NCBI GenBank assembly: GCA_964343085.1
Contig: CAYFIF010000001.1
Location: 1-54,172, forward strand
Direction of reading: 5' to 3'
DNA from: an uncultured bacterium
Lineage (GTDB): Bacteria; Fidelibacterota; Marinisomatia; Marinisomatales; UBA1611
Length of the DNA stretch: 54,172 bases
The position numbers and the translations under genes are program-made. Below, one piece after another: positions 5,378 through 35,643 of this stretch (position 1 is its first letter; every line of letters begins with the position of its first letter). Below the pieces are notes generated by a model. The model had not been told where the DNA came from. It saw nothing but the letters and a program-made list of their open reading frames with translations, and made no database searches.

Positions 5378-5386
5378 GTTTTAACC

Positions 5387-8791: not shown

Positions 8792-8808
8792 TAAATTAAA
8801 TAAATATA

Positions 8809-10161: not shown

Positions 10162-10166
10162 ATTTT

Positions 10167-11531: not shown

Positions 11532-11533
11532 AG

Positions 11534-14093: not shown

Positions 14094-14096
14094 TTT

Positions 14097-18008: not shown

Positions 18009-18025
18009 TCTAGTTATGCTTTAAG

Positions 18026-19054
18026 TTAGTCTAAAGTAGGAATTTCTGTACTTTTTCGTTTTAAAATCTTTACAGGAACCATACTTATATTGCCAACACT
18101 ATCATTTTCGTTTTCAACCATGTTTTCAATCATTTTAATCGCGCTGCTTCCTAAAAGAAAAAAATCAGTATATATTGATGTAAGCTCAGGAGTTATTATC
18201 TCCGAGAATGAAAGATTATCGTACCCAGCTATAATAAAATCTTCAGGCACTTTGTACCCGTTTTCTGTAGCTCCTTTAATAAATCCATAACATGTTTCAT
18301 CGTTACAGCCAAAAATAGCCACATCATTTAGATTGCGTTTCCTGAAGTCTTCAAATGCAACTTTACCGGTTGAGCTTGAAAAATCACCATCAAATGTCCA
18401 GACTAGTTTAAGTGATGGTTTCTCAGAGATATGGTCAAGGAAACCATTTTTTCTAAAAATTGCATCTATCGGCGGTTGCTTAAATGTGCCCTCTATTGGA
18501 CGCTTTGGGCCGGATATAAAACCAAAATTTTTATAGCCAAGCTCTTCGAAGTGTTTGGCTATCATATATCCGCCAGCGTAAGAGTCAAATGTGATTGTAT
18601 CAATTTTTGGATTTTTTATAGGAGTCAGTGTAACTATAGGATATTGGCCCACCCCATCCTTTATTTTTAAATAATCTTTATTGTCCAAGCTTGGAAGGAA
18701 AAGACAGATTCCTGTATACTTTTTGCTTAAGCTTATAATATACTCTATTGGATCTTCACTATGTTTTGCAAGGTTGATGATTACCACCTCAGAGGAAGTG
18801 TTTTTACTGGCTTTATAAAACCCATGCAAAAAATTTGCATAGAACTCTCCCCCAAAAAGCTCACTCACAAGGGCAATAGTTAGTTGACCCGAGTGTTTAT
18901 CTTTTCCTATAAATGGATAGCCAAGTCTGCGTGCTGATGCGTAGATTTTTTCTTCGTTCGAGGAATAGTTTCTTCGTTTGCGGCGAAGAGCTCTGGATAC
19001 AGTCGCGATGGACAGTCCGGTATCTTCGGATACGTGTTTAAGAGTTGTGCGCAA
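18026..19054 (-). CDS. LacI-family transcriptional regulator
   Basis: The N-terminal HTH is TLKHVSEDTGLSIATVSRALR, followed by a periplasmic-binding-fold sugar sensor domain. The start is a TTG at 19054-19052. It is the first gene of the minus-strand operon. Confidence 0.9.
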   Translation of the reverse strand: MRTTLKHVSEDTGLSIATVSRALRRKRRNYSSNEEKIYASARRLGYPFIGKDKHSGQLTIALVSELFGGEFYANFLHGFYKASKNTSSEVVIINLAKHSEDPIEYIISLSKKYTGICLFLPSLDNKDYLKIKDGVGQYPIVTLTPIKNPKIDTITFDSYAGGYMIAKHFEELGYKNFGFISGPKRPIEGTFKQPPIDAIFRKNGFLDHISEKPSLKLVWTFDGDFSSSTGKVAFEDFRKRNLNDVAIFGCNDETCYGFIKGATENGYKVPEDFIIAGYDNLSFSEIITPELTSIYTDFFLLGSSAIKMIENMVENENDSVGNISMVPVKILKRKSTEIPTLD

Positions 19055-19312: not shown

Positions 19313-22300
19313 ATGAGTAAACTGTTAAAATCATTAATGCTAATAATGTTGCCTGTTTTTTTAAATGGACAAATGATAAATAATTTTGATAGTGCGCCAG
19401 AGGAAGGATACTGGGGCTATGAAAGTTCTGAAAACTCAGATTCAACGCTTAGTAACGCGACTATCAGTTACATTCCATCTGGACCCGGAGTAGAGGGCGA
19501 CGGAGCTATGCAAATTGATTATAGTGTCCACAACAGTGAAGCATGGGGTGGTTATACCAAGATATTTCACATGGCTGGAGGAAATGATCCTGCTGGTGGA
19601 TCCTCTGTGGAGGGGACATGGATGCTAGCTGCTGAGGCCGGAGCAATGATGGTTGGGCCATCAGCTAATAGCGGTGAATGGTGGTCGAATTCAGTTGAAG
19701 ATGTTACAACAAGAGCATGTTTTTTTGATGATGAATATGTTTTCAACGCTGATGGTTCATTTCAAAATGTACAAGGTAGTGAGACTTGGTTAGAATCTTG
19801 GCAGGGTGTTGAAGCTGAACAATGTGGAGCTCCGGTTGCACCACATGATGGTTCAAATCCAGCCTCCTGGGCCTATGATGCTGCTACTGGCGCATTAACA
19901 CTTTCAGGTGTCGGGGCGTATCTTGGATTGCCGAAGGCTGTTAACGATGGAGAACTAAGCGCTGCAGAACCTCCTGCGGTTCCAGAAACAAGAACCTACA
20001 ACGCAACAGTTGTGGATGATACCATGAGGCTTGTTATTGAGTGCGGAACAGGATTGTTTTGGACTTTTAAGATGGTTGCGGTCGTTTCTACGCAAGAACT
20101 AGCAAGTTTATCTGATGATGTTCATTATTCGTTACTAGAGATTAGACCTACGGATGATGGTGTCTGGGACTGGTCGGGATATGATAGTATTTCTTTTTCA
20201 TACTATAATTCTATCCCTCAGGACTCTGCAGGTCGGGTGAACTTGAGGTTAAACTTGAGTGACTATGGTGATATTGCGGACCCTTCGAGCTACAATGGTC
20301 TAGGAGAGTATTACTATTCTTTTCTATATATTCTTGATAATGAACCAGGTTGGAATACTGTTACTATGCCACTTCTTCGTAATGATGACTGGGGTGGTGG
20401 TGGATTTAATCTTACTGGATGGGCTGGTGAAACAGGAAATGGTGAGCTTGACAAACATGCTATCGGGGGGTTCCATTTTGAATTTTCCGTAAGTGGTGGT
20501 GGAGATGGTGACCATGTAACTGGGACAATAGTGTTAGATGATTTTAGGTTAACTGGTTCACTCAATAAGTTGACAAACCCAGGGTTTGAGATTGAAGATG
20601 CGCAGGATGATGGAATGGGCTGGGGCTCAGCTATGGGTGGTGGACATGTGGATGTTTTAACTGATGCTTCAGTCGCACATAATGGTGATAATTACCTCAG
20701 CATTGGGGTTACAGATAATTGGGCTGTTTACTACACTGAGGACAGTATCCCTGCTCAATTTGGCGAGACCTGGCGTTTTAGTGGTTTTGGTAAAATGGTT
20801 CTAGGTGATACTACCGCTGGCGCAGCATTCAAGCTTGAGGCAAAGGATGTTGCGGGTACAATCCTTGGTACGACTGGGGATGTATTTCTTCAGTTAACGG
20901 AAGAGTGGGAGGAACACTCAATTGAGTTTGTGATGCCTGAAGGTACCCAAACATTGACAGCGGTTATTGTAGCGTCCCGGTGGGACGGTGTGGAAGTTGA
21001 TTACGCCTTTGACGATATGTTTCTAATGAGCATGGGGATTTTAGATGTCGTTCCACCTGCTCAGGTTGAAGATATCGGAGCTGTTCCCGCATCATACTAT
21101 AATTTGGTGACATGGGCTGATGTTTCTGGAGAAGATGGTGAAACATACAATGTTTATGCAAGTACATCGCCAATTACAGATATAACTGATCCTTCAGTAG
21201 ATGTCGTTGCAACAAACGTATTAGAAGGTAGTCAGGCTGCGGTACACTATCTATTTAATCCATTAGTGGATGCCAATGTTAGTTATTACTATGCTGTAGT
21301 ATGCAAAGATGCATCTAATAACGTTGGTCCTGCAGGCATGTCAGAGGTCTCGGTCCCTAACAATGCCAAAGGTGTTCCAACTGTTTCTCTTGAGCCGCCA
21401 ACAGCGTTTGCTGCTGATGGGGATTTATCAGAGTGGTATGATAGTGGGATTACGCCATTTATGGTTGGTGCAACAGAAAATTCTTATGGAACGCCTCATC
21501 TAGGTTTTGGAACGGTGGATAGCGATAATGATTTGCATGGAACATTTTACCTGGCTGTTGATAATGAATATCTATATATAGCGGCTGAAATATTAGATGA
21601 TGTTGTTGTCGATGATCAGGCTAATGGATGGTGGACCTCTGATGTTGTTCAGATCTGCATTGGGCTGTATGACCAGCGTGGACCAAAGCATGTAGGAATG
21701 GAAAGAGGTGAGGAACCTGACTATAAGATGTATTTTACTCCGGCTAGTGCTAATTCTGACAATGGCGCAGGGGTTTTAGCAGAGCATGGTGATGGTAACT
21801 ACTACTACGAAACTTTTAATCCGGACTATGTTTTTGAGTTTCGTATTTCACTAGATGATATCCTTATAGATGATGATGCTAGACTGACTCCATTAAATGG
21901 AATGCGAACACCTTTTGAGCCGATGATCCATGACAATGATGGTTCAGGTTGGGAGGGCCTTTTGGTATTGTCACCAATCAATAACGATAATGCGCATCAG
22001 ACCTGCGAGGTGTGGTCGAGCACATGGATCGGTGATCAGGCGACAACGATGAGCACGGGTAGTGATATTGTTTTAAATGAGTTTGCTTTACATCAGAACT
22101 ATCCCAACCCATTTAATCCAAAGACTACAATAAGGTTTTCTATTCCCGAGTTTCAGCTTGTTAATCTTTCGGTGTATAATATGCTTGGTCAGCAGGTGAT
22201 AACTCTCATAGATAAAGAACTTTCAGCTGGTTATCATGTTGCAAACTGGAACGCAGGAAATATTGCTTCCGGTATCTACATCTATAAATTAACATCTAAG

Positions 22301-22339
22301 GGTAAAACGCTTACCCAGAAAATGGTACTAATGAAGTAG
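19313..22339 (+). CDS. Secreted multi-domain putative glycan-binding protein (CBM4/9-like, FN3-like and CBM9/DOMON-like modules) with a T9SS C-terminal domain
   Basis: It has a signal peptide. Module motifs are LTNPGFEIEDAQDDGMGWG (CBM4_9-like), NLVTWADVSGEDGETYNVYAS..YYYAVV (FN3-like) and DGDLSEWYD..FYLAVDNEYLYIAAEILDD (CBM9-like). The C-terminus reads YPNPFNPKTTIRFSIPE..GIYIYKL. No catalytic motif was seen. The gene has its own SD and terminator. Confidence 0.6.
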   Translation: MSKLLKSLMLIMLPVFLNGQMINNFDSAPEEGYWGYESSENSDSTLSNATISYIPSGPGVEGDGAMQIDYSVHNSEAWGGYTKIFHMAGGNDPAGGSSVEGTWMLAAEAGAMMVGPSANSGEWWSNSVEDVTTRACFFDDEYVFNADGSFQNVQGSETWLESWQGVEAEQCGAPVAPHDGSNPASWAYDAATGALTLSGVGAYLGLPKAVNDGELSAAEPPAVPETRTYNATVVDDTMRLVIECGTGLFWTFKMVAVVSTQELASLSDDVHYSLLEIRPTDDGVWDWSGYDSISFSYYNSIPQDSAGRVNLRLNLSDYGDIADPSSYNGLGEYYYSFLYILDNEPGWNTVTMPLLRNDDWGGGGFNLTGWAGETGNGELDKHAIGGFHFEFSVSGGGDGDHVTGTIVLDDFRLTGSLNKLTNPGFEIEDAQDDGMGWGSAMGGGHVDVLTDASVAHNGDNYLSIGVTDNWAVYYTEDSIPAQFGETWRFSGFGKMVLGDTTAGAAFKLEAKDVAGTILGTTGDVFLQLTEEWEEHSIEFVMPEGTQTLTAVIVASRWDGVEVDYAFDDMFLMSMGILDVVPPAQVEDIGAVPASYYNLVTWADVSGEDGETYNVYASTSPITDITDPSVDVVATNVLEGSQAAVHYLFNPLVDANVSYYYAVVCKDASNNVGPAGMSEVSVPNNAKGVPTVSLEPPTAFAADGDLSEWYDSGITPFMVGATENSYGTPHLGFGTVDSDNDLHGTFYLAVDNEYLYIAAEILDDVVVDDQANGWWTSDVVQICIGLYDQRGPKHVGMERGEEPDYKMYFTPASANSDNGAGVLAEHGDGNYYYETFNPDYVFEFRISLDDILIDDDARLTPLNGMRTPFEPMIHDNDGSGWEGLLVLSPINNDNAHQTCEVWSSTWIGDQATTMSTGSDIVLNEFALHQNYPNPFNPKTTIRFSIPEFQLVNLSVYNMLGQQVITLIDKELSAGYHVANWNAGNIASGIYIYKLTSKGKTLTQKMVLMK

Positions 22340-22356
22340 TATCCGTATACACACAA

Positions 22357-22388
22357 AAAATGAGGGGCAAATAACTGCCCCTCATTTT
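22357..22388 (+). terminator. Rho-independent terminator
   Basis: AAAATGAGGGGCA-aataac-TGCCCCTCATTTT forms a perfect 13-bp stem with a GC-rich core. It is followed by a T-rich tail and lies 18 nt after the stop at 22339. Confidence 0.75.
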
Positions 22389-22452: not shown

Positions 22453-25233
22453 ATGATAAAACGCTTGGCCCTTATTTTGATGCTTTCTTTTTCTTTTTCT
22501 CAGACAACGGGAAAGGTTTCAGGCGTTGTTTTAGAAAAAGAAAAATTAGGACCGCTTCCTGGGGCAAATATTTATCTTTTAAACACTCCTTACGGTGCCG
22601 CTTCCGATATTGAGGGAAGATTTACAATTATCAATATACCTCCTGGGAAATACACACTCAAAGTTGATATGATAGGTTACAAATCAGTTCAGCTGGATGA
22701 GCTTATTGTTTCTGTAAATAGGACAAGCTCGCTTGATATTGAGATGGAGTCAACTGTAATCGAGGGTGAGGTGGTTACTGTTGAGGTATCTAGGCTGGCT
22801 CAGAAGAAGGACCAAACTGGAACCATTAAAAATATTTCAGGTGAAGAGATTCAGGCACTTGCTGTCGAAAATATTGGTAGCGTTATTAACATGCAGGCCG
22901 GAGTGGTTAACGGACACTTTCGTGGTGGTAGAAATACGGAAGTGACCTACATGGTTGACGGTGTCCAGGTAGATGAATCTTTTGGTGGCGGAAGCGCAGC
23001 TGTTGACATCCAGCCAGAGGCCGTACAAGATCTAGAAGTGATAACAGGAACATTCAATGCCGAGTATGGACGAGCTATGAGTGGTGTTGTTAACATGGTG
23101 ACAAGAGATGGAGGGCCTAGGTTTGAGGGGTCGATTTCTGTGGCTTCGTCGTCCTATTTCACCAATAGTTTAGATGGTAATGGTGATACTATTTTTGTAG
23201 GACTAAATCCCAATCTTAATCGTAGTGAGGATCTAAAATTTAGTTTTGGTGGCCCAATATGGGGTGAGAAGATCACCTTTTTTACTAACCTGCGTAAGCA
23301 GAACAATAGAGGTCACCTCAATGGCATTAGAAGATACAAGCCATATGATGTTAGTGATTTTACATCAGATGATCCTGATGATTGGTGGTCAACTCAATCA
23401 GGAGACAGTTCTTATGTGCCGATGAATACGGGAGATAATTTTTCTTCACTACTCAAGCTTGGGTTTAACATTTTCAAAGGGATACGATTTTCTATTTTAA
23501 ACTCCTACAGCGATGATACCTGGTATTGGTATGACCATTCGATGAAATATAACCCAGATGGGAGAGCAGGAAATCATAAGAAGACTTATTACTCTGCTTT
23601 TCAATTAAATCACATGATTACTCCGAAGTTTTTTTATGAGCTCAAGCTAGCCTATATGGAAAATAATACAGGGACATACCTCCACCAAGATCCAATGGCT
23701 TATATCATTGCTGATGGTTCTAACTATGATCAATTATTCAACTATTTTGGAACCAATATACCAATCTATCATGATGGTTTACCTCATGAGGTGGGTGACA
23801 CTGTTTATCTGTATATCCATGATAGACATCTTGAAAATTATGGATCCGGCTTTTTTACGGGTGGTCAGCAGAAGGAACACACGAAGCACAGAGACATCGA
23901 TAAGACATTGAAGTTTGATCTAACCTGGCAGGCAAATCACAGTCACAATTTAAAACTAGGGGTTATGGGTATTACTCATGATGTAAAACATAAGTGGCGA
24001 CAGATAAGAAATAAATATGATGGACAGTCAAATGTTGATTATTGGGTTTATGAGCCAGAAGTTTTTCCTGACTCTACTGTGTATGCTGACATTTATAATG
24101 TTAGGCCAATAGAGGCCGCTGCTTACCTGCAAGACAAAATGGAATTTGAAAATATGGTCATTAATTTTGGAGTAAGATATGACTATTTTGACCCCGTAAG
24201 TTATTATCCCTCTGATAGACGAAATCCTGCTAATCAGTTAGTGCTTCCAGATTCGATGATGTCTGAATACATGGATGCGCCTATTATTGATCAGGTAAGT
24301 CCACGTATAGGGTTTGCCTACCAGCTCGGTAATCAAGCTGTACTACACTTTAGCTATGGTCACTTTTTTCAAATGCCACCGCTTTATTCTATGTATCAAA
24401 ACAAAAGTTTTTTGGTTGCTCCAAGCGATTATTCTACCACTATGGGGAATGTTCTTCTAGAACCAGAAAAGACAATCACCTATGAGATTGGTTTATGGCA
24501 AGAGCTAGCAAGAGGCCTGAATCTCGATGTCGCATTATTTTATCGAGATATATATAACCTGCTTAGTACAAAAATTATTTCTACATATAACCAGATTGAG
24601 TATGGTCTCTATAGCAACAAGGACTATGGGAATGCAAGAGGCTTAGAGGTTACCCTGGATCTGGGTTATGGATCGATCAAGGGTATGATCAACTATACCC
24701 TACAGTATACGAGGGGAAATGCGGATAACCCAACTCAGACCTTTACCCGAGCTGGGAATAATATGGATCCCGTGAATCGTTTTATACCTATGAGTTGGGA
24801 CCAGAGACATACACTAAATGGTACTCTGATGTACCTTGGACCACAATATGGTGCTACAATTACGGCATACTATAATTCGGGATCTCCATATACCTTTTCT
24901 CCCCAGAGCGAGAGTGTATTATCTAGGATTAATTTGTATCCAAACAATGATTATAAGCCCTCTAACTATACTGTTGACGCAACATTATATTATAGGTTCA
25001 AGCTTTTCGGCAGGTATAATGGTAATCTAGACCTCACTATTTACAACTTATTAGATAGACTAAATGAGTATGGCGTAAATAGTGAAACAGGTAGAGCATA
25101 TACAGCTGTTATAAGGGAGACAGATTATGCAGGTCATCGCAGCGATTTTAATGAATTTGAAGATAGAATAAAAAATCCATCAATGTTTTCAGCTCCGAGG
25201 ATGGTAAAACTTGCTCTAGGTGTTAACTTTTAA
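22453..25233 (+). CDS. TonB-dependent outer-membrane receptor (CarboxypepD_reg-like domain + plug + beta-barrel), SusC-like but with no SusD partner
   Basis: It has a signal peptide. The CarbopepD_reg-like region is GKVSGVVLE..GANIYL..SDIEGRFTIINIPPGKYTLKV. The plug region is ISGEEIQALAVENIGSVINMQAGVV..TYMVDGVQV. The 926-aa protein ends in ..LALGVNF, with the aromatic terminus typical of OMPs. Confidence 0.9.
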   Translation: MIKRLALILMLSFSFSQTTGKVSGVVLEKEKLGPLPGANIYLLNTPYGAASDIEGRFTIINIPPGKYTLKVDMIGYKSVQLDELIVSVNRTSSLDIEMESTVIEGEVVTVEVSRLAQKKDQTGTIKNISGEEIQALAVENIGSVINMQAGVVNGHFRGGRNTEVTYMVDGVQVDESFGGGSAAVDIQPEAVQDLEVITGTFNAEYGRAMSGVVNMVTRDGGPRFEGSISVASSSYFTNSLDGNGDTIFVGLNPNLNRSEDLKFSFGGPIWGEKITFFTNLRKQNNRGHLNGIRRYKPYDVSDFTSDDPDDWWSTQSGDSSYVPMNTGDNFSSLLKLGFNIFKGIRFSILNSYSDDTWYWYDHSMKYNPDGRAGNHKKTYYSAFQLNHMITPKFFYELKLAYMENNTGTYLHQDPMAYIIADGSNYDQLFNYFGTNIPIYHDGLPHEVGDTVYLYIHDRHLENYGSGFFTGGQQKEHTKHRDIDKTLKFDLTWQANHSHNLKLGVMGITHDVKHKWRQIRNKYDGQSNVDYWVYEPEVFPDSTVYADIYNVRPIEAAAYLQDKMEFENMVINFGVRYDYFDPVSYYPSDRRNPANQLVLPDSMMSEYMDAPIIDQVSPRIGFAYQLGNQAVLHFSYGHFFQMPPLYSMYQNKSFLVAPSDYSTTMGNVLLEPEKTITYEIGLWQELARGLNLDVALFYRDIYNLLSTKIISTYNQIEYGLYSNKDYGNARGLEVTLDLGYGSIKGMINYTLQYTRGNADNPTQTFTRAGNNMDPVNRFIPMSWDQRHTLNGTLMYLGPQYGATITAYYNSGSPYTFSPQSESVLSRINLYPNNDYKPSNYTVDATLYYRFKLFGRYNGNLDLTIYNLLDRLNEYGVNSETGRAYTAVIRETDYAGHRSDFNEFEDRIKNPSMFSAPRMVKLALGVNF

Positions 25234-28200
25234 TGTTGAATAAGATTTTAGTTAAGCTACTGATCTGCTTTTTTCTTCCTTTGCATCTTCTTTTTTCTCA
25301 GGGCAAAGAGTACCAAGGTCCAGAGGATCCAGCGGGTGATATTGCTGCTGAGAAAGAGGGCTACATGACAGGAAATAGAGTCTATATTTACTTTAGAAAT
25401 ACAACCGAGCTCTCCGACTGGCCAAGGGTAAATGTATCTAAATGGCCAAACAATCCTAATGGTTTGAAAATGACTGATGGTATTGGTCTACTTGTTGGAG
25501 CAAAGGTATATATTGAAGATGACGGAGATGCTGGGACAGTAGACACTATACCTATAACTGATCCATTAGACCTTTTCAACCCAAATAAAGAGCGTCACAC
25601 TCTATACTATCTACAAACTAGCTACAGGGAGGAAATGGACCTTGATCCTACTGGTACAGTAGAGTGGGGTTTTTACCCTGCGTTTGGTTATTTTAATGAG
25701 ACGGGTGAGTATCCTGCGCTATCCAATATACCAGGATCTTGGCCTTTAAACGGCTGGCCATCCACTGGATTTGAAACAAAATGGATCGGTGAGTGGAACG
25801 GACGCTTTGGTAGGGGGGTTACTTATGCTGATCAGGAGTCTTATTATGTTGTTAATGATGCACAAGACCAAGAAAACCTAGGCAGCGAAGATAATGTCAG
25901 GTACTATCCAAGGCCAGGTCGCTATATAGGAGACTTGAAACCAGATGTCACCGTACAACCAGGAGCCCCTTGGGGTGGTCTTGGTCTTAGGGTATCAGTC
26001 AGAGGGTTTCAGTGGAACAACCCTCAGGCAAGGGATGCAATATTTTGGGAGTATTCTGTTGCTAATATTTCAGACTATGATCTGAGGGATGTCGCCTTTG
26101 GTTATTGGCTTGATAATTCTATCGGTGGAGATGGTGATGATGATCTTGGATACTTTAATAAGCAGATAGATATGGCCTATTCTTGGGATATTAATGGGAT
26201 CGGAGCAGGTGGACTCCCAACGGGCGTCATGGGTTTTGCTTATTTAGAAAGCCCCGGGTTGGCCTATGACTATCGTGATAACGATAATGATGGTCTGGTT
26301 GATGAAAAAAGAGATAATGAAGCCACGGCCATTATAGGTGCAACTGAAGGAATAACAGATCTGAACGCATTTTTAGAGTTTTATAAACTGAATGTTGAGG
26401 ATCTCAAAGATCATTGGGATGCGGATGAAGATCAAGACTGGCAAGATGGTGAAGATCTAAATGGTGACGGGATATATCAGCTATCAGAAAACTATGGTGA
26501 TGATATAGGTATCGACGGAGTCGGACCCGGAGAGTTAAACTATAACGGTCCAGACTTAGACGGCTCGGAGTGTAACCACAAGCCAGATTTTTTAGAGGGC
26601 GTGGGTTGTGAGCCTAACTTCAACACAACAGATGTATCAGAGTCTGATATGGTTGGTCTAACAGCATTTCGTATGTTTCCTATACCTAGTCACGCTCCCT
26701 CCAATGAAACAACCTGGTTTAAGAATGATCAGGCAATGTGGGGGGTTATAGGTGTGGACTCACTTGAGGAGTACGTTGACAATGTATCTAATTTGGTTGA
26801 GGTATTCGCATCAGGTCCATTTCCTCTTTATCAGGGGAGGGTTGAGAGAATTTCAATGTCAGAACTTCATTCATATGATCCGCTGGAGGGACTCAGCTCG
26901 GAAAATCACACTGCACCTGCTTTATATGAGTTAAAGAGGATTGTTCAGGTTATATATGAAAAAGACTATCGTTTTGCACAGCCACCAGAGATGCCAACAA
27001 TTACCGCAACAGCTGGTGATAATAAGGTAATTCTAACTTGGGATGATATAGCGGATACAAAGACGCGAGATCCTTTTGTCGGTAATATCAATGATTTTGA
27101 GGGATATAAAATCTACAGATCTACGGACAAATACTTGTCCGATCCTGAAATTATTACTGATGGTTATGGAACGCCAATGTTTAAGAAACCGATATATCAG
27201 TGTGATCTTGATGACGGGATAAATGGATTCACTGATTTTGGTTTGGTTAATGGTATGGGATACAACCTGGGAACTGATACGGGTATATCTCATATTTTTG
27301 TAGATAATACGGTCCAAAATGGTAGAACCTATTACTACGCTGTTGTTGCCTATGACTTTGGTGCCCCTGATATTGGTCCCGGCATTGCACCCTCAGAAAA
27401 TAACGCAGTCATAGAGCTTGATGAAGCTGAGGAGGTACGTTCAGTTGGGAAAAATGTTGCCGTTGTTGTTCCTCACCAGCGTGCCGCTGGTTATATACCT
27501 CCTTCACTGGATATATTGGAGTCGAATTTGTTTGGATCTGGATTGGTGAACCCTTTGATCCGTGCTCAGGGAAGTCTCAAGCAGGGGCATGAATACGCTC
27601 TTACTTTTTTAGCCGATACTATTGAAGAGATAAGTGGGTATGAATACGGTTTTCAGTATGTCACAAATGGTTTGAAAATCTATGATTTGACTGATAGTAC
27701 TGTACTAGTTTATTCGGAGGACACGTCGAAATATATTGGCCAGAATCTAGTCTATCGCGACACATCAGATTTCTGGACTTTGAACCCTGAACAAAAAATA
27801 TATACCGATGTTTTTGATGGTCTGCAGGTTGAAATTGACCCAGATGTAGAAGTTCCGGAGTATAGTATTAATAGTTCAAAATGGATCAATGGTTACGGAA
27901 ATATGAGAATAACCCCAACGGTTGAGGAGGCACTTAAACTTGCTTGGAAATATCATATTGTTTTTACGGATAATGATTCTGCCTATGTCGGGATAGCCAG
28001 ATCAGGCACAGTAAGAGATGAAAATGGGAACTCAATAGGTTTAAAAAAAATAAATCAGCCTGCCATAAATTTTTATGTTCAGAATACCTCATTTATTGAT
28101 ACATCAACCGGACAGTTTCCGATTATGGATGTTGTTGCTCATGATGTAAATGAGAATGGCATCTTTGAGATTGCTCTAGATAGAATCTTTGTCGGCGCCA

Positions 28201-28703
28201 CAGTAGGTAGCAGGTGGAGAGCTACTGCGTTTATTATTGATTTTCAACTTGATTCTGCCTTGGATTATCCTGAAGCGGGTGATGTTTTTCAGGTGGACTG
28301 GAGGCGACCTTTTTTTAATACAGATACAATTAGGTTTACAGTTAAGAAAGAGACTGAGTTAGACATAGATAGTGTTAAGATAGATATGGATAGTATTAAA
28401 GTAGTTCCGAATCCATATGTTATGACCAATATGATGGAGTCAGCCGTTGCCAATCAGTTTTTAAATCAGCGTAGACGTATAATGTTTACTCATATACCTT
28501 CTGATTGCAGAATCAAAATTTTTACAGTAAGCGGTGTTTTGGTTGATGAGATTGTTGTAAATAATAAACCCGAAAATGGAATAATTCATTGGGATATGTT
28601 AACAAGAGAGAATTTAGAAATAGCCGCTGGAATGTATATATACCATATAGATTCAATTGAAACAGGTAAAGAAAAAGTTGGAAAATTTGCGGTAATTAAA
28701 TGA
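25233..28703 (+). CDS. 1156-aa secreted protein of unknown function with acidic Ca-binding-like repeats, an FN3-like module and a divergent T9SS-CTD-like C-terminus
   Basis: Its start overlaps the receptor stop (TAATG). It has a signal peptide (LHLLFSQG). Acidic repeats are DNDNDGLVDEKRDN and DADEDQDWQDGEDLNGDGI (about 26270-26540). The FN3-like module reads GDNKVILTWDD..FEGYKIYRS..GRTYYYAVVAYD. The C-terminus reads IKVVPNPYV..RIKIFTVSGVLVDE..GMYIYHI..GKFAVIK. I found no recognisable catalytic signature. Confidence 0.5.
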   Translation: MLNKILVKLLICFFLPLHLLFSQGKEYQGPEDPAGDIAAEKEGYMTGNRVYIYFRNTTELSDWPRVNVSKWPNNPNGLKMTDGIGLLVGAKVYIEDDGDAGTVDTIPITDPLDLFNPNKERHTLYYLQTSYREEMDLDPTGTVEWGFYPAFGYFNETGEYPALSNIPGSWPLNGWPSTGFETKWIGEWNGRFGRGVTYADQESYYVVNDAQDQENLGSEDNVRYYPRPGRYIGDLKPDVTVQPGAPWGGLGLRVSVRGFQWNNPQARDAIFWEYSVANISDYDLRDVAFGYWLDNSIGGDGDDDLGYFNKQIDMAYSWDINGIGAGGLPTGVMGFAYLESPGLAYDYRDNDNDGLVDEKRDNEATAIIGATEGITDLNAFLEFYKLNVEDLKDHWDADEDQDWQDGEDLNGDGIYQLSENYGDDIGIDGVGPGELNYNGPDLDGSECNHKPDFLEGVGCEPNFNTTDVSESDMVGLTAFRMFPIPSHAPSNETTWFKNDQAMWGVIGVDSLEEYVDNVSNLVEVFASGPFPLYQGRVERISMSELHSYDPLEGLSSENHTAPALYELKRIVQVIYEKDYRFAQPPEMPTITATAGDNKVILTWDDIADTKTRDPFVGNINDFEGYKIYRSTDKYLSDPEIITDGYGTPMFKKPIYQCDLDDGINGFTDFGLVNGMGYNLGTDTGISHIFVDNTVQNGRTYYYAVVAYDFGAPDIGPGIAPSENNAVIELDEAEEVRSVGKNVAVVVPHQRAAGYIPPSLDILESNLFGSGLVNPLIRAQGSLKQGHEYALTFLADTIEEISGYEYGFQYVTNGLKIYDLTDSTVLVYSEDTSKYIGQNLVYRDTSDFWTLNPEQKIYTDVFDGLQVEIDPDVEVPEYSINSSKWINGYGNMRITPTVEEALKLAWKYHIVFTDNDSAYVGIARSGTVRDENGNSIGLKKINQPAINFYVQNTSFIDTSTGQFPIMDVVAHDVNENGIFEIALDRIFVGATVGSRWRATAFIIDFQLDSALDYPEAGDVFQVDWRRPFFNTDTIRFTVKKETELDIDSVKIDMDSIKVVPNPYVMTNMMESAVANQFLNQRRRIMFTHIPSDCRIKIFTVSGVLVDEIVVNNKPENGIIHWDMLTRENLEIAAGMYIYHIDSIETGKEKVGKFAVIK

Positions 28704-29770
28704 AAAATAATTTTGTAACAATAATAACGGTTTTTACTTTTTCCTTTTTAAATATTCTGTGTGGTCAGACGATAAATCGTTACGGCACAACCGCTGCTAA
28801 TTTTTTAGAGATTGGTGTTGGTAGCGAGGCAAATGCAATGGGTGAGGCCTATGTTGCTGTAGCGAATGATGTTTCTTCGATATACTGGAACCCGGCTGGA
28901 CTATCTAGCCTAAAAAAATCTTCAGCTCTCTTTATGATTCAGCCTTGGTTTGTGGATATAGATATGTTGTTTGCAGGCGGTGCTATGGTAATTCCCAAAG
29001 TTGGAGTCATAGGATTAGGTATTACTCACCTAGATTATGGTGAAATGGAGGTAACAAACCTAGAGTACCAAGATGGCACCGGTGAAATGTTTCGGGCGTC
29101 TGATGTTGCTGCTTCGTTTACTTTTTCAAGAAAAATTGTCTCCTGGTTTTCATTCGGATCATCGCTAAAATATATTAACTCAAATATATGGCACAGTTCA
29201 GCAAGTGCTTTTGCTGTTGATCTTGGAGTATTAGTAAACACAAGTTTTTTTTCATTTACTGGTAATAATAAAGATGGAATTAATATAGGTATGAGTATCT
29301 CTAATTATGGTACCAGAATGAAATATGATGGGATCGATAGTTATCAGCCTATTGATATTTCAGAGTACGAAGAAGGAAACTATGGTGATGTAGCTGGGCA
29401 ATTTAGGACCTCGGAATGGGAGTTGCCTCTTATATTTAGAATAGGTGTCTCTCTAAAGCCAATAGTGACAAATAAGATGGATCTTATTATTTCCGCTGAT
29501 GCTCTTCATCCTAATAATAATGCTGAATCTATTAATATTGGAGCCTCTTTAGATAATAAGATTCCTGGATTTGGTGAAGTAAGTATTAGGGGAGGTTTAA
29601 AAAGTGGTATGAAAAATTTAAATACTGATGATAAAGATTTTGGGTTTGCGACTGGAGCCGGGCTGAAGCTCTATTTTCTAAACAATAAGGCACTGACCAT
29701 TGACTATACTTACAAGACCATGGGAATTTTGGGCAATGTCCAGGCCTATACTGTAGGTATTGCATTTTAG
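28700..29770 (+). CDS. PorV/PorQ-family outer-membrane beta-barrel (T9SS-associated)
   Basis: An ATGA overlap joins it to the upstream gene. It has a signal peptide. The N-terminal signature GTTAANFLEIGVGSEANAMGEAYVAVANDVSSIYWNPAGL matches my recollection of PorV/PorQ family proteins. The C-terminus is ..YTVGIAF. Confidence 0.7.
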   Translation: MKNNFVTIITVFTFSFLNILCGQTINRYGTTAANFLEIGVGSEANAMGEAYVAVANDVSSIYWNPAGLSSLKKSSALFMIQPWFVDIDMLFAGGAMVIPKVGVIGLGITHLDYGEMEVTNLEYQDGTGEMFRASDVAASFTFSRKIVSWFSFGSSLKYINSNIWHSSASAFAVDLGVLVNTSFFSFTGNNKDGINIGMSISNYGTRMKYDGIDSYQPIDISEYEEGNYGDVAGQFRTSEWELPLIFRIGVSLKPIVTNKMDLIISADALHPNNNAESINIGASLDNKIPGFGEVSIRGGLKSGMKNLNTDDKDFGFATGAGLKLYFLNNKALTIDYTYKTMGILGNVQAYTVGIAF

Positions 29771-29779
29771 TGATGAATA

Positions 29780-31255
29780 ATGGGGTTTTTATATCGCTTA
29801 GTTATACTTTTTTTTTTCTTTATTAGTTGTACAAAGCATTCTCAAATACCAGAAGAAATTATTCTTGCGAAGATTGGTCCTAGTATAATTACGATACAGG
29901 ATTTTATCAGAAGATCGGAATACACAATACGCCCAGATTATTGTAAGCAAGATAATTATATACACAAAAAAATAATTTTAAACTCACTAATTAGTGAAAA
30001 ATTAACTGCTTTAGAGTTTGATAAAGGCATAAGCCAGGTCAATGATGAGTATCTAGAGCACTTTTTAAATGGTCGTAAAGAACAGGTTATGCGCCAGCTT
30101 TATTTTTCAGAAGAGTTTTACTCTAAAGTAAAATTATCAGAAAAAGAAATAAAAGATGCTCTCAGATTTTCTGGTAGAAAAATCACTGTCAAATTTTTAA
30201 ATCTTCCAGACCTGGATTTAGTGGAAAAAATAAAGGAGCTAGACTCTGCGAATATAGCGCTGGATTCTATCCATAGTGTTCTTTGGGGTGGAAATGCACC
30301 TACTAAAGAATTTGATTGGTTTAATCGTGAAGTTGATGAAATACATGATGCCTTATTTAACGAAAATATTTTTAAAGGTATGTTGTTAGGACCGTTTGAA
30401 AGTGAGGAAGGTACATTTATTTTGATGAAAATTGTTAGTTGGAAAGATCAGATAAAGATCACAGAATACGATAAAAATCTTTTATGGAAGGATGTTAAAG
30501 AAAAGCTTACCGATAAAAAAGCAAAAAAAGCTTACCTTGAATCAATAAAAGATTTAATGAGTGGGAAAAAGATGAATCTAAATTCTGATGTTTTTTATAG
30601 ATACGCTGAAAAAGCCGCTGATTATTTTTTTAAAGTACACGAATCCAAGAAAAAAATGTTAAACCAGGTACTCTGGGATGATAATCAGATTGAGGATAAT
30701 ATGTTTACCTTTGATGTTAAAGATAATGATATCGACCCTGGCTCTATAATTCTAGACTACGGTGGTGAGTCTTGGACAGTTGGGGAATTAAATCAGCATT
30801 TAAAATCTCATCCTTTTGTGTTTAGAAAACGGAAAATGAATCGCAGCGAATTTCCGAAACAATTACGACTCGCTATTGCAGACCTTATCCGGGATATAGA
30901 GATTACAAAAGAGTGCTATAAAAGGGGGCTTGATAAAAATTGGAGCGTTAGTCTAAACTATAATATGTGGCAGGATGTATCCAAAAGCAAAAAATATGTA
31001 TCTAGTTTAAGGCTAAAGAATAAACAAATTGATAGTCAGGATGAGTGGTTGGCGTTTATGAACCCTTTGATAGATTCTCTCCAGAACATATACTCTGATA
31101 AGATAAAAATTAATATGGAGGTGTTTGAAAAGGTTGAACTCACTAAGACGGATATGATGGTCACTCAAAGGGGAGTTCCTTATCCTATTTTAGTGCCTTC
31201 CTTTCCAATCTTAACAACAGATGATAGATTAGATTTTGGAAGTAAGATAAAGTGA
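29780..31255 (+). CDS. SurA/PpiD-like periplasmic chaperone lipoprotein (degenerate parvulin-like region); function uncertain
   Basis: It has a lipobox (FFISCTK). ILAKIGPSIITIQDFIRR resembles a SurA_N start. GMLLGPFESEEGTFILMKIV resembles the end of a parvulin domain. The protein is Lys-rich and starts 9 nt after the PorV-like gene. Confidence 0.35.
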   Translation: MGFLYRLVILFFFFISCTKHSQIPEEIILAKIGPSIITIQDFIRRSEYTIRPDYCKQDNYIHKKIILNSLISEKLTALEFDKGISQVNDEYLEHFLNGRKEQVMRQLYFSEEFYSKVKLSEKEIKDALRFSGRKITVKFLNLPDLDLVEKIKELDSANIALDSIHSVLWGGNAPTKEFDWFNREVDEIHDALFNENIFKGMLLGPFESEEGTFILMKIVSWKDQIKITEYDKNLLWKDVKEKLTDKKAKKAYLESIKDLMSGKKMNLNSDVFYRYAEKAADYFFKVHESKKKMLNQVLWDDNQIEDNMFTFDVKDNDIDPGSIILDYGGESWTVGELNQHLKSHPFVFRKRKMNRSEFPKQLRLAIADLIRDIEITKECYKRGLDKNWSVSLNYNMWQDVSKSKKYVSSLRLKNKQIDSQDEWLAFMNPLIDSLQNIYSDKIKINMEVFEKVELTKTDMMVTQRGVPYPILVPSFPILTTDDRLDFGSKIK

Positions 31256-31363: not shown

Positions 31364-32446
31364 ATGAACAAAAAATATTTTTTCAAAAATATAATCATAG
31401 CTCTTACTCTAGTATCTGTTGTTTTTTGTAAACCATATAAAGGTGGAGAATTAAGGACAGATGACACATACCGCTATGGCAGGTTCGAAGTAAGAATGAA
31501 GTCTGCTTATGGTAATGGTGTGGTTAGTTCATTCTTCACTTATCGAGATTTTTGGGAAGAGGGGCACACAAGTAATAGCTACTGGAATGAGATTGATTTT
31601 GAGTGGTTGGGTAATTATGATGATAAAGTCCAGACCAACCTTATCATACAAAATGCTTGGGATCTTCCAGAGTTGGTGGACTTGGGTGTTAGCCCGCATG
31701 AATCCTTTCACACGTACGCAATCGAGTGGACTCCCTCAGATGTTAAGTTTTTCATAGAGGATCAGTTGATAAGGATTGTTAATAATTTTTATGCTGATTC
31801 GTTATACCATTATCAAAAACTTATGATGAATATTTGGCAACCTATTTATGATGACTGGGTCGGGGATTTTAATCCAAGTATTTTACCTGTCTATGCTTTT
31901 TATGATTGGGTAAAATACTATGCGTACGTGCCAAACTCTGGTAATGCAGGAACGGATAATAATTTTATATTATTTTGGGAAGATGAATTCGACTTTTATG
32001 ATACATCACGCTGGTCCAAAGCCAACCACACCTGGGATGGTAATAATTCAGATCTTATTTATAGTAATGTCGTTTTTGAGTCAGGCTATCTTATTCTGTG
32101 TTTAACGACTCCACAGGACACAGGCTACAATGGAGACCCTCTTTCGATTAATGCTCAAGAAATACCATCTAAGGTATCTTTAGGCAGTCCCTATCCGAAT
32201 CCATTTAACCATAATATTACCTTACCTGTCTTCTTGTCAGAATCTGGGATAATCTCTTTTTCAATATATGATATAAAAGGCAAACAAATTAAATCCAAAG
32301 AACATCAGTTTTTAGATAGTGGGGAAAATAATATTTTTTGGAATGGTTCAGATAGAAGCGGTAAACAAGTATCCTCTGGAACTTATTATTTGCACATTCA
32401 GAATGAAGGCCGCTCTCAGGTAGAAGAAATCCTTTTTTTGAAATAG
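31364..32446 (+). CDS. GH16 beta-glucanase of the lichenase/endo-1,3(4)-type with a T9SS C-terminal domain
   Basis: YRYGRFEVRMKSA..GVVSSFFTY..WNEIDFEWLG carries the E-x-D-x-E catalytic motif and closely resembles the Bacillus lichenase pattern. The C-terminus is YPNPFNHNITLPV..GTYYLHI. Confidence 0.85.
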   Translation: MNKKYFFKNIIIALTLVSVVFCKPYKGGELRTDDTYRYGRFEVRMKSAYGNGVVSSFFTYRDFWEEGHTSNSYWNEIDFEWLGNYDDKVQTNLIIQNAWDLPELVDLGVSPHESFHTYAIEWTPSDVKFFIEDQLIRIVNNFYADSLYHYQKLMMNIWQPIYDDWVGDFNPSILPVYAFYDWVKYYAYVPNSGNAGTDNNFILFWEDEFDFYDTSRWSKANHTWDGNNSDLIYSNVVFESGYLILCLTTPQDTGYNGDPLSINAQEIPSKVSLGSPYPNPFNHNITLPVFLSESGIISFSIYDIKGKQIKSKEHQFLDSGENNIFWNGSDRSGKQVSSGTYYLHIQNEGRSQVEEILFLK

Positions 32447-32476
32447 TTTTTGGCTAGACAGAGTAATAAGGTTTTA

Positions 32477-33682
32477 ATGATTGATTTTTTAATAGTAATG
32501 ATTTTTTCATTTTCAATTTTCGGATGTCAAAAGGAGGAGGAAAGACCAGGTGATAGTGATTTAAATTTATTAGAAAATGATGACTGGGATTTGGTATGGT
32601 CAGATGAATTTGATGGAAATGAGTTAGATATCTCCAAGTGGAATAAACTAAGATGGCGACCTGGTTGGGTTAACAACGAGTTGCAGGCTTATACAGATAG
32701 AGACACAAATATTTTCCTTAAAGATGGATACCTAGTTTTACAGGGCCTAGTTGAGCCTGGTTATTTTGGGACTGACTATACGGGCTTTGATTATAGTTCA
32801 GACTATACCTCTGGTAGAATTAATACCGATGATAAAGTATCAAGGACATATGGTCGTTTTGATGTAAGTGCTAAACTTCCCAAGGGTAATGGATCCTGGC
32901 CTGCAATATGGATGCTCGGAGAGAGTATATCAACAGTTGGTTGGCCAGACTGTGGAGAGATTGATATTATGGAACATGTTGGATTTGATGATGGAATGAT
33001 CCATGGTTCGATTCATACTGGGGAATATAACCACATGAATAATACCCAAAAATCTGGTGCCAAATTTTTATCAACAGCTACAGACTCTTTCCACGTTTAT
33101 TCGTTGGAGTGGAGTCCTCACTATCTACGCTATCTCATAGACAACCAGCCTTATTTTTTTGTGTATAATGATAGTGATGGTGACACCGGAAAATGGCCGT
33201 TTGATGAACCCCATTACATTATTTTAAATCTTGCGATTGGTGGAGATTGGGGCGGTGCTCAAGGCATCTCTCCCAGTGCCTTTCCTATGAAGATGTTAGT
33301 AGATTATGTTAGAGTCTTTAAAAAGTCTGATGCTTATAAAGATGTTAGTGTAACTTTTAAGGTAGATATGAAAAATCAAAATGTTTCAGAGACCGGTGTC
33401 TGGCTATCAGGGGGGAATATTAGTTCTGGTCAGCCAGGTGGAATTCAGATGAATCAATCAGTAGATTCAAGTATTTGGGAAATCACTCTGACCCTTCCTC
33501 CTCATTCTAGTTATACTTACAAATTCAGAAATGGATATTTCCCAAATTCATGGCAAGGTGGCTGGGAGGTCATAGAAGGTGATTGCGGTGTTGGGCAATA
33601 TAATGATAGATCACTTACTGTTAGTGGAATGGATACTTTGCTTGCATCTGTTTGTTTTGGAGAGTGTACAGCATGCGATTAG
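32477..33682 (+). CDS. GH16 laminarinase lipoprotein with a C-terminal beta-sandwich CBM-like module
   Basis: Likely start is ATG 32477 (MIDFLIVMIFSFSIFGC lipobox); the track start at 32450 is a TTG. The catalytic motif is CGEIDIMEH, with WPFDEPHYIILNLAIGGDWGG downstream. The C-terminal module reads VTFKVDM..IWEITLTLPP..YTYKFRNG. Confidence 0.9.
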   Translation: MIDFLIVMIFSFSIFGCQKEEERPGDSDLNLLENDDWDLVWSDEFDGNELDISKWNKLRWRPGWVNNELQAYTDRDTNIFLKDGYLVLQGLVEPGYFGTDYTGFDYSSDYTSGRINTDDKVSRTYGRFDVSAKLPKGNGSWPAIWMLGESISTVGWPDCGEIDIMEHVGFDDGMIHGSIHTGEYNHMNNTQKSGAKFLSTATDSFHVYSLEWSPHYLRYLIDNQPYFFVYNDSDGDTGKWPFDEPHYIILNLAIGGDWGGAQGISPSAFPMKMLVDYVRVFKKSDAYKDVSVTFKVDMKNQNVSETGVWLSGGNISSGQPGGIQMNQSVDSSIWEITLTLPPHSSYTYKFRNGYFPNSWQGGWEVIEGDCGVGQYNDRSLTVSGMDTLLASVCFGECTACD

Positions 33683-35643
33683 TTCTAACTAGTTTTTTAT
33701 TGTTACAATTACTTTTTTCGCAGGGTTTCCTTCATAATGAAAATGGTGAAATTGTTGAGGGGAATGGGGAGCCGATATTATTAAGAGGTTTTGGGCTTGG
33801 TGGCTGGCTCGTTCCTGAAGGATATATGCTACATAATCAGGCTTGGATTTCTGGTTTTGAATCACCAACAGATATTGAGAATCATGTAGAAAACCTTATT
33901 GGTCCTGAGGCTGCAGAAGATTTTTGGATTTTATACAGAGCGAATTATGTTGCTCAGGCTGATATTGATCAAATTTCAGAATGGGGTTTTAATCACATAA
34001 GAGTCCCATTCCACTATAAACAATTTTATGATGAAACAGGATCTGGCACACCTATTGGTTACGCAATCATCGATGAGCTTATAACCTGGTGTGAGCCACA
34101 TAATTTGTATATTATTTTAGATATGCACTGCGCACCAGGAGCTCAGAACGGGGGCCCCATAAGTGACAGCGATGGAACCGCTCGGCTCTGGCTTGAGGAA
34201 GAGAATAAGGAATTAACCATACAAATATGGAGAGAAATAGCAGAATACTACTCAAGTGAGACCCTTATCGGAGGCTATGATTTAATCAATGAGCCAGTTT
34301 TGCCAGGTAACGTTAGTCTCGAAGAGTTTAAGCAACTGTATATTGACATCACCGAAGCAATAAGGGAAGTAGACAACAACCATTTAATTTGGGTGGAGGG
34401 GAATTGGTATGGAACAGATTTTTCTGGTCTTACACCTCCGTGGGACGATAATATGGGCTATTCATTCCATAAATATTGGGGGCAGACTGACATCACAACA
34501 ATACAATCTTACATAAATATGAGAAGTAATTATGGTGTCCCTTTATGGATGGGAGAGTCGGGTGAGAACTCAAATCATTGGTATTATGAAGTTTTTAAAC
34601 TATTAGAAGAGAATAATATTGGCTGGAATTTCTGGACTCACAAAAAAGTTGATAAAATAACAAGTCCATATTCAGCGTTAGTAACTCCTGAATATCAAAC
34701 CATTATTGATTATTTAACTGGGGCCATTGCACAGCCAGATCCTAATATAGCGGGTATGGGTCTGACAAGTTTTGCAAACAGTCTTAAAATAGAAAACTGT
34801 ATAACTCGACCTGGCGTGATTGCTTCATTAACAGATCCTGAATATGGAGAAGTGTCAAAACCCTATATTACTCACTCTATTCCAGGGGTTATTCCTGCTG
34901 CCTACTATGATATTGGTGCAAGAGGAATATCCTACGCAGATAGTGATTATTGGAACGATGGAGATGGCGGATATAATGATGGCTGGTCTTTCAGGAATGA
35001 TGGCGTTGATGTTGAACCAAGTGATGGTGATGATATTCCTTATACAGTAGGCTGGACAGAGGCAGCTGAATGGCTGAAGTATACGATTGAAGATGTCAGC
35101 CCAGGTACGTATGATGTCAAGTTTAGTATTTCTGCTCCGCAGTCTGGTGGTATTTTTTTTGCTCAGTTAAGTGGCCAAAATCTTGGTGTCATAGATGTGC
35201 CGTCAACAGGAGGATGGTATAACTGGGAAGAACTTGTAACTCAAGGTGTAGAGGTAGGTGGCGGTGAAAAATTTTTAAAGATTCAAATTGTTCAGGCAGG
35301 TTTTAATATTGAAAGTATCTCATTTGAATCAACGATGGGTGCAAAAGATCAGGATGTAATTTCAGAGAGTTTTTATTTAGGCAAACCATATCCTAATCCA
35401 TTTAATCCTAGGGTAAGTATGAAAATAAATATCAATGAACCTGGTGAACTTAATTTTTCAGTATACAATCTCAGAGGAGAGCTAATTCAAAGTTGGAGCA
35501 AAAATATATTCACCACAGGGAGTCATACTTTAGAGTGGGATGGATTTGATAGGTTTGGTAATGAGTCAAGCAGTGGTATCTATATCATTAATGCTACTAG
35601 CAAAGACTATGGTATGCAAAGAAAAGTTATTCTGCTTAGATAG
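33673..35643 (+). CDS. GH5 beta-glucanase with a CBM6-like module and a T9SS C-terminal domain
   Basis: Likely start is ATG 33673 (MRLVLTSFLLLQLLFSQG), which overlaps the upstream stop by 10 nt. GH5 motifs are LLRGFGLGGWLVPEGY, HIRVPFHY, DLINEPV and LWMGESGE. The CBM6-like region reads VGWTEAAEWLKYTI..GTYDVKF..TGGWYNWEE. The C-terminus is YPNPFNPRVSMKI..GIYIINA. Confidence 0.85.
   Translation: MRLVLTSFLLLQLLFSQGFLHNENGEIVEGNGEPILLRGFGLGGWLVPEGYMLHNQAWISGFESPTDIENHVENLIGPEAAEDFWILYRANYVAQADIDQISEWGFNHIRVPFHYKQFYDETGSGTPIGYAIIDELITWCEPHNLYIILDMHCAPGAQNGGPISDSDGTARLWLEEENKELTIQIWREIAEYYSSETLIGGYDLINEPVLPGNVSLEEFKQLYIDITEAIREVDNNHLIWVEGNWYGTDFSGLTPPWDDNMGYSFHKYWGQTDITTIQSYINMRSNYGVPLWMGESGENSNHWYYEVFKLLEENNIGWNFWTHKKVDKITSPYSALVTPEYQTIIDYLTGAIAQPDPNIAGMGLTSFANSLKIENCITRPGVIASLTDPEYGEVSKPYITHSIPGVIPAAYYDIGARGISYADSDYWNDGDGGYNDGWSFRNDGVDVEPSDGDDIPYTVGWTEAAEWLKYTIEDVSPGTYDVKFSISAPQSGGIFFAQLSGQNLGVIDVPSTGGWYNWEELVTQGVEVGGGEKFLKIQIVQAGFNIESISFESTMGAKDQDVISESFYLGKPYPNPFNPRVSMKININEPGELNFSVYNLRGELIQSWSKNIFTTGSHTLEWDGFDRFGNESSSGIYIINATSKDYGMQRKVILLR

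Follow-up and report, generated by a model that had tools for sequence, protein, structure and literature searches.

A co-inherited unit of TonB-dependent receptor, large secreted protein and PorV/PorQ-family barrel: a candidate outer-membrane uptake module in a Marinimicrobia laminarin island

In the SusC/SusD (RagA/RagB) systems of Bacteroidota polysaccharide utilization loci, the gene of a TonB-dependent receptor with an N-terminal CarboxypepD_reg-like domain immediately precedes that of a large secreted partner, the lipoprotein SusD, which has a tetratricopeptide repeat (TPR) fold. BtuB-BtuG of Bacteroides and TbpA-TbpB of Neisseria are also TonB-dependent transporters with a surface-exposed capture protein, in these cases one that is not SusD. 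BtuG and TbpB are lipoproteins, and TbpB-type partners are brought to the surface by Slam, a dedicated 14-strand barrel encoded nearby, which is a DUF560 barrel with a TPR domain, lies outside the PorV family and involves no type IX signal. A further kind of pairing comes from the secretion system of type IX (T9SS), whose components PorU and PorZ carry long C-terminal domains (CTDs; 108 and 96 aa) that are reported not to be removed, the PorU CTD being proposed to stay bound to PorV and the PorZ CTD to be retained for PorQ binding (PMC10202324, PMC11285876). Here, we describe a four-gene unit at positions 22453-31255 of a 54,172-nt stretch of DNA from an uncultured bacterium (assembly GCA_964343085.1, contig CAYFIF010000001.1, forward strand), which we call the window. 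The unit encodes a TonB-dependent receptor, an 1156-aa protein that we call X, a PorV/PorQ-family barrel and a SurA/PrsA-like lipoprotein. On balance, we consider it slightly the likelier reading that the four genes are one outer-membrane nutrient-uptake module, general to branches of the FCB (Fibrobacteres-Chlorobi-Bacteroidetes) group outside Bacteroidia and used here for laminarin.

The unit and its upstream border comprise the following features.

22357..22388, + strand: hairpin of 13-14 bp, G+C-rich (6 G-C pairs), followed by a T run, between the upstream CBM9/CTD gene and the receptor gene
22453..25233, + strand: TonB-dependent receptor, 926 aa, with signal peptide, CarboxypepD_reg-like domain, Plug, barrel of the 22-strand type and C-terminal Phe
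25233..28703, + strand: X, 1156 aa, of a family without a Pfam or NCBIfam model, with a Sec signal peptide at aa 1-23
28700..29770, + strand: PorV/PorQ-family outer-membrane barrel paralogue, 356 aa, with signal peptide and C-terminal Phe
29780..31255, + strand: SurA/PrsA-like lipoprotein, 491 aa, with an invariant lipobox Cys17

Direct reading of the DNA confirms the tight spacing given in a preliminary description of the window: the stop codon of the receptor overlaps the start codon of X (TAATG, 25231-25235), the stop codon of X overlaps the start of the barrel gene (ATGA, 28700-28703), and a 9-nt spacer (29771-29779) separates the barrel gene from the lipoprotein gene. The hairpin and T run are likely to be an intrinsic terminator and the 5' border of the unit. 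Because they separate it from the upstream CBM9 gene, the unit probably begins at the receptor gene.

A scan of species-representative genomes with X returned at least 556 loci, of which 80 were kept for counting. They represent Marinimicrobia, Calditrichota, KSB1, Ignavibacteriota, Rhodothermales and loosely labelled Bacteroidota metagenome-assembled genomes (MAGs). An orthologous receptor is present in 60 of the 61 loci with at least 3 kb of upstream sequence, the barrel in 64 of the 67 with enough downstream flank, and the full receptor-X-barrel trio in 53 of the 54 with both flanks visible, with intergenic gaps mostly between -4 and +50 nt. Where the order is changed to receptor-barrel-X (L020, L025, L033, L103, L121), the trio still stays together. 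The reverse search, in which a 10-sequence barrel alignment was run against metagenome contigs, gave the same picture; X directly adjoins the barrel in 63/65 loci, and the receptor is present in every locus with enough upstream sequence (30/30). Recurrence at these frequencies, in the genome loci and in the barrel-found loci, places the arrangement far beyond chance. The bit scores of the three proteins correlate at r = 0.96-0.99 across 60 loci; this is mostly shared phylogeny and shows co-inheritance, not physical contact.

The trio is also duplicated. On one metagenome contig (L153:720-15784), two complete receptor-X-barrel modules stand in tandem and have a barrel each; on another (L133:13-9008), the next receptor-X pair comes immediately after a barrel, its X being 1509 aa long. 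Two MAGs carry two separate X loci each. Gene order and sequence comparison thus indicate that receptor, X and barrel are inherited and duplicated as one unit across several FCB phyla, which bears out the proposal in the preliminary description of a conserved receptor/X/PorV-like unit. The neighbours vary from locus to locus and include GH16, GH3, GH92, GH95 and GH42/35-like glycoside hydrolases (GH), sugar-binding ATP-binding cassette (ABC) proteins and penicillin amidase. Because of this variation, the module appears to be generic and not laminarin-specific.

The receptor matches the Plug model PF07715 (37.6 bits, cutoff 23.9) and the barrel model PF00593 (95.3 bits, cutoff 27), and carries a PF13715 CarboxypepD_reg-like domain at aa 22-110 (61.3 bits), N-terminal to the plug. 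By these profile matches it is a member of the TonB-dependent receptor superfamily, as originally assigned. It does not match the SusC/RagA model TIGR04056 at E <= 0.01 in NCBIfam, and a PDB sequence search returned PqqU and YncD only (E ~5e-4), with no SusC. As judged from these comparisons, the receptor belongs to a lineage distinct from SusC/RagA. No SusD/RagB-family match was found in any open reading frame (ORF) of the 54 kb, including the one that runs off the left end, in agreement with the earlier reading, and the gene tables of four other loci (L001, L002, L083, L084) contain no SusD-family Pfam match. The wider idea that SusD is absent from all of these phyla was dropped; for Melioribacter roseus, a SusCDE operon has been reported (PMC3534657).

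When compared with SusC/SusD, the locus shares a receptor gene of the CarboxypepD_reg-bearing kind directly before the gene of a large secreted partner, a setting among a regulator, surface binders and glycoside hydrolases in an island for glycan degradation, and the occurrence of many duplicates with differing sets of carbohydrate-active enzymes (CAZymes). It differs in that the receptor is without the SusC/RagA signature; the partner is an 1156-aa non-lipoprotein with a CTD-like end, as opposed to a TPR-fold lipoprotein; there is also a PorV-like barrel, often joined by a SurA-like lipoprotein; and the hosts are Marinimicrobia, Calditrichota, KSB1, Ignavibacteriota and Rhodothermales. The preliminary description had spoken of a SusD-less TonB-dependent receptor, with the SusC-SusD pairs of Bacteroidota as its model, and had looked to laminarin as a possible inducer. 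A premise of a SusC that has lost its SusD does not apply to this receptor, the host of the island is a member of the Marinimicrobia, and related modules elsewhere stand beside GH3, GH92, GH95, GH42/35-like and sugar ABC genes. The proposed receptor/X/barrel capture module is supported in part: the conserved, co-inherited unit holds, a SusC-type receptor and laminarin specificity do not.

X belongs to a large family. Among 1.8 billion representatives, its homologues form 3227 clusters at 50% identity with E <= 1e-3 and 421 with E <= 1e-30. There are more than 1500 clusters at 90% identity, some with hundreds of metagenomic members, and all named close homologues are from Candidatus Marinimicrobia / Neomarinimicrobiota. 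Pfam, NCBIfam and PDB sequence searches with X, four of its sub-fragments and 24 diverse members gave only weak CTD-type matches, and the signal peptide has no conserved lipobox Cys. Four regions can be distinguished, for which confidence in the AlphaFold2 model is given as the predicted local distance difference test (pLDDT).

26268..26657, + strand: X aa 346-475, conserved Asp-rich motifs DNDxDGxxDE and DDVGxDGxGP...GEPNF..TDxDESD
26988..27467, + strand: X aa 586-745, conserved Fn3-like region, DFEGYKIYRS ... NGRTYYYAVVAYD
27468..28367, + strand: X aa 746-1045, beta-sandwich domains, the best modelled part (pLDDT 80-94) and the lowest in family conservation
28368..28700, + strand: X aa 1046-1156, divergent T9SS CTD-like seven-strand beta-sandwich, ending ...GKFAVIK

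The Asp-rich motifs resemble calcium-binding loops and may act as such. Conservation extends over about 560 residues of the N-terminal part, which include many Asp, Glu and Trp that are invariant. Both the N-terminal two-thirds of X and its CTD are conserved, and the beta-sandwich region between them is variable, a pattern that would fit docking surfaces together with a region that faces the substrate or acts as a spacer. Conservation is highest in the CTD, whose mean top-residue frequency is 0.57 vs 0.31-0.35 for residues 746-1045.

Both profile comparison and structure prediction identify the C-terminus of X as homologous to T9SS CTDs, as the preliminary description had proposed from a CTD-like beta-sandwich at this end. 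A profile of 80 X C-termini (76 used) aligned to one of 111 canonical CTDs with an hhalign probability of 96.3% (E 1.7e-9), and the only PDB sequence matches of the X family profile were the PorU CTD (E 0.004) and the PorZ CTD (E 0.026). The last residues are similar as well (...GKFAVIK in X, ...IRFAVIR in PorZ). Within the 24 diverse members, 12 matched the PorZ model and six the PorU model, C-terminally wherever coordinates were shown; four matched the general CTD model TIGR04183 and two weakly matched CHU_C, the X CTD being type-A-like. A CTD hidden Markov model (HMM) built from the loci matched 3 of 85 X members. In the AlphaFold2 model, computed from a 43-sequence alignment of 54-94% identity, the domain is formed by seven strands at aa 1056-1154 with pLDDT 80-90. 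The top Foldseek matches of the X model were PorZ and PorU, at low template-modelling (TM) scores and with the C-terminal half alone interpretable. We note that a family-specific insertion (X aa 1063-1079; 28419-28469), modelled at low confidence, lies between the first two strands of the domain; it contains an invariant Glu1069 and is followed just past its end by a conserved Arg1081. This insertion is a candidate contact element for the barrel.

The 356-aa barrel protein matches NF033709 with 199.5 bits (cutoff 90) and the Pfam PorV model PF19572 with 35.7 bits (cutoff 27), and aligns with Flavobacterium johnsoniae PorV (6h3i_F) at E 1.5e-7, so that the earlier assignment to PorV/PorQ holds at the family level. 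Its scores lie far below the equivalog cutoffs for PorV (88.5 vs 250), PorQ (90.9 vs 220) and PorV2 (56.6 vs 325). In Pfam it matches the PorV and FadL models only, DUF560 (Slam) not being among them, and no PorP_SprF match was reported from Pfam or NCBIfam. Barrels of this subfamily, down to 32% identity, are always found within the module. Multiplicity per genome was judged from the tandem modules of L153, which place at least two such barrels in one genome. Because of that contig and the equivalog scores, the barrel is best classified from its sequence as a dedicated paralogue and not as the housekeeping PorV, PorQ or PorV2. This sustains one part of the suggestion in the preliminary description that X is held by its own PorV paralogue.

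Several described barrel-partner pairs are comparable. As in PorU-PorV and PorZ-PorQ, where a large secreted protein keeps a long CTD that is bound to a PorV-family barrel (PMC10202324, PMC11285876), the CTD of X is closest to those of PorU and PorZ. X outside its CTD has, however, no likeness to the C25-type peptidase of PorU or the propellers of PorZ, the barrel is no equivalog of PorV or of PorQ, and X and its barrel go together with a TonB-dependent receptor, at least one contig (L153) carrying more than one copy of the pair. The type B CTD cargo proteins that go with PorP/SprF-like barrels, such as SprB with SprF, resemble X in that the cargo gene adjoins its own barrel gene, proposed to be cargo-specific (PMC10202324); here, in contrast, the barrel matches PorV/PorQ models and the CTD is type-A-like. 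Like the BtuB-BtuG and TbpA-TbpB systems, the module would join a TonB-dependent transporter to a non-SusD partner, and the nearby barrel recalls Slam, but the barrel is not of the DUF560 type and X is not a lipoprotein. In BamG-BamH, a 14-strand FadL/PorV-like barrel grips a surface protein by its extracellular loops (PMC12578637). That pair differs in being part of the essential barrel-assembly machine (BAM), single-copy and unlinked to receptor genes.

The fourth gene product, thought from the outset to be a SurA-like lipoprotein, is identified by structure prediction and profile alignment as a SurA/PrsA-type chaperone module with a parvulin-like domain. Its AlphaFold2 model (pLDDT 78, predicted TM-score 0.75) matches LIC12922, SurA in the BAM-SurA complex (9hg7_F), PrsA and PEB4 with a probability of ~1.0. 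Its family profile aligns over 399 columns, with a probability of 95%, to a SurA_N_3-bearing gene of the L065 module, whose place is between the second X gene and the barrel gene. The Pfam search with the window protein itself gave only a match at E 0.033, and Rotamase matches in Pfam were obtained only for distant counterparts (L057 and L073). Together with the lipobox, the model and the L065 alignment confirm the original assignment.

Outside the unit, the window encodes the following on either side.

3515..19054, - strand: divergent arm with LacI regulator, GH16-PA14, Opp-type ABC importer, GH1, GH30, GH149 and GH5
19313..22339, + strand: CBM9 + CBM4_9 protein, 1008 aa, with a canonical T9SS type A CTD, upstream of the unit (CBM, carbohydrate-binding module)
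31364..35643, + strand: GH16-CTD, GH16 and GH5-CBM6/35-CTD genes, downstream of the unit on the same strand

The full polysaccharide-utilization-locus (PUL) content seen at first inspection is thus present: a LacI regulator, three GH16, two GH5, GH30, GH1 and the CBM9/CBM4_9-CTD protein, to which GH149 and the ABC importer can be added. On the families that it encodes, we assign the window to a laminarin-degradation island of marine Marinimicrobia (SAR406). Marine primary production has a major sink in laminarin, and the Marinimicrobia are among the most abundant uncultured bacteria of the ocean. The 1008-aa protein is a probable surface glycan binder, and a homologue of it is frequently found upstream of the module in other loci. 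No T9SS core genes lie within the 54-kb window; a T9SS is nevertheless very probably present in the organism, as at least five canonical CTD cargo proteins are encoded in the island.

Several further observations concern these neighbours. The Opp/Dpp-type ABC system (11534-16738, - strand) consists of SBP_bac_5, two permeases and a fused double ATPase, lies between the GH16-PA14 and GH1 genes and is probably the inner-membrane importer of beta-glucan oligosaccharides; distant modules have SBP_bac_1/8 sugar ABC systems in its place. An 1134-aa ORF (5387-8791, - strand) has no Pfam family and was considered as a paralogue of X, which was rejected on comparison. It is a GH149 beta-1,3-oligosaccharide phosphorylase by its match to PDB 6hq6 (E 1e-290), with weaker matches to GH161. 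It has no signal peptide, and the phosphorolysis of laminari-oligosaccharides, the last step of the island, would therefore be cytoplasmic. As listed, the GH5-CBM6-CTD ORF begins at a TTG inside the preceding GH16 gene, with an overlap of 31 nt (33652-33682), and the real start may lie further downstream. Directly after the beta-glucan island follow two GH13 alpha-amylase-family genes on opposite strands (35700-40099), one of the CBM48 type and one of the AMPK1_CBM type, which suggests alpha-glucan or glycogen metabolism beside beta-glucan use. On either side of the island lies one of two large CotH-kinase-like proteins that carry Lamin Tail Domains and T9SS CTDs, at 1-3579 (- strand; incomplete, running off the window) and 40023-42422 (+ strand), and a secreted protein of this CotH/Lamin Tail Domain type also adjoins the module in L070.

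If the four genes form an uptake module, X would cross the inner membrane via Sec and then be exported by the T9SS. It would escape cleavage and lipid attachment, and its retained CTD would dock on the cognate PorV-like barrel; this docking is proposed by analogy to PorU-PorV, PorZ-PorQ and the type B cargo with PorP/SprF barrels. Anchored beside or over the receptor, X would help to capture or hand over oligosaccharides made by the CTD-bearing GH16 and GH5 enzymes and bound by the CBM9 protein. The receptor would import them, GH30 and GH16 would trim them, the Opp-type ABC system would take them up, and GH1 and GH149 would finish their breakdown. The SurA/PrsA-like lipoprotein may serve as the periplasmic chaperone of X or of both barrels. 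The SusD-like lid role of X, drawn by analogy, is the least secure step of this scheme.

A number of observations weigh against the uptake-module reading. The protein-protein contacts of the scheme are hypothetical, and the glycan might be captured by the upstream CBM9-CTD protein alone. Two to three tandem X genes per single barrel and receptor occur in L010:31-11760, L065:1055-12641 and L063:622-10250 (in L063 with the X genes upstream of the receptor), an arrangement at odds with a simple 1:1:1 complex. An iterated HMM search found the SurA-like gene in only 30 of 60 loci. The model of X has a mean pLDDT of 61, with residues 21-720 mostly below 50, a stretch that contains well-conserved segments and might yet have a catalytic function. 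As for the CTD, X of the window does not match TIGR04183 or PF18962 even at E <= 10. Its extra residues lie between strands 1 and 2, whereas those of PorU and PorZ follow strand 5 (PMC11285876). Because the canonical CTDs of the island also weakly match the PorU and PorZ models, the likeness of the X CTD to these two is only moderately specific.

X could instead be a surface enzyme or glycan binder of a new family that is co-transcribed with the receptor and acts independently, the barrel merely secreting or anchoring it. The conserved N-terminal residues with their invariant Asp, Glu and Trp would suit such a role, the low model confidence over residues 21-720 leaves room for it, and the loci are rich in secreted CAZymes. 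However, X matches no catalytic family, and its residues stay invariant while the CAZyme context shifts (GH16, GH92, GH95, GH3), which fits a generic partner better. The receptor, moreover, stands alongside in 60/61 loci, often with overlapping stop and start codons. We therefore regard an independent enzyme or binder as unlikely, though worth keeping in view.

We give little credence to a second alternative, in which X and the barrel, with or without the SurA-like protein, are a locus-specific type IX attachment or shuttle unit that places the CTD enzymes of the island near the receptor and handles no substrate. The PorZ/PorU-like CTD of X would be expected of such a unit, and CTD cargo genes surround the module in many loci. 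Yet several loci have no CTD cargo gene in the flanks examined, the remainder of X is unlike the PorU peptidase or the PorZ propellers, and keeping one attachment machine per receptor paralogue would cost much.

It is improbable that X, the barrel and the SurA-like protein are dedicated biogenesis factors of the receptor, comparable to BamG-BamH in the BAM complex of Bacteroidota. A SurA/PrsA-like chaperone within the unit and the precedent of a FadL-type barrel that binds a surface protein beside the barrel-assembly machine (PMC12578637) speak for it. The chaperone is, however, found in only half of the loci, and a protein of 1100-1200 aa that is duplicated with every receptor paralogue (L153) suggests a stoichiometric partner and not an assembly catalyst. 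That the adjacency is fortuitous and the barrel the ordinary PorV of the genome is hardly credible, as the family-level PorV annotation, which is all that favours it, is contradicted by the sub-cutoff equivalog scores, the cross-phylum synteny and the two barrels of the tandem modules on one contig. What could have undone the original proposal has thus turned out otherwise: synteny holds, the barrel is not a sole PorV, X falls into no enzyme family, and no SusD was found in the window.

Beyond the uptake-module reading itself, we tentatively raise a broader possibility, to which we attach distinctly less weight: most FCB phyla outside Bacteroidia may import glycans independently of SusD, through a non-SusC TonB-dependent transporter in a stable complex with a substrate-capturing cap. 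The cap would be a protein of ~1100 aa that is delivered by the type IX system and anchored non-covalently to a dedicated PorQ/PorV-like barrel by a PorZ/PorU-like CTD that it retains.

Each component is of a kind already known (a TonB-dependent transporter with a surface partner, a CTD on a PorV-family barrel, a SurA-like chaperone), and it is their combination that, to our knowledge, is undescribed. We found no description of a receptor/X/PorV-like module in the full-text literature searched, with most subscription journals outside its coverage, and the literature on Melioribacter, Caldithrix and Marinisomatota mentions TonB receptors or Por sorting domains and not the module.

These findings suggest that the module may be an alternative to the SusC/SusD sugar-import pair in phyla related to Bacteroidota. 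If the module is a transporter complex, it would serve to mark PUL-like loci of Marinimicrobia, Calditrichota, KSB1, Ignavibacteriota and Rhodothermales, which current SusC/SusD-based predictors miss, and structural biology would gain a concrete complex to examine. PorV-family barrels would then be not only secretion shuttles but also permanent anchors of uptake machinery. Should the broader possibility of a capped, SusD-independent transporter hold as well, it would represent a second, independently evolved solution to the problem that SusCD solves and the first case of a type IX system assembling part of an uptake machine.

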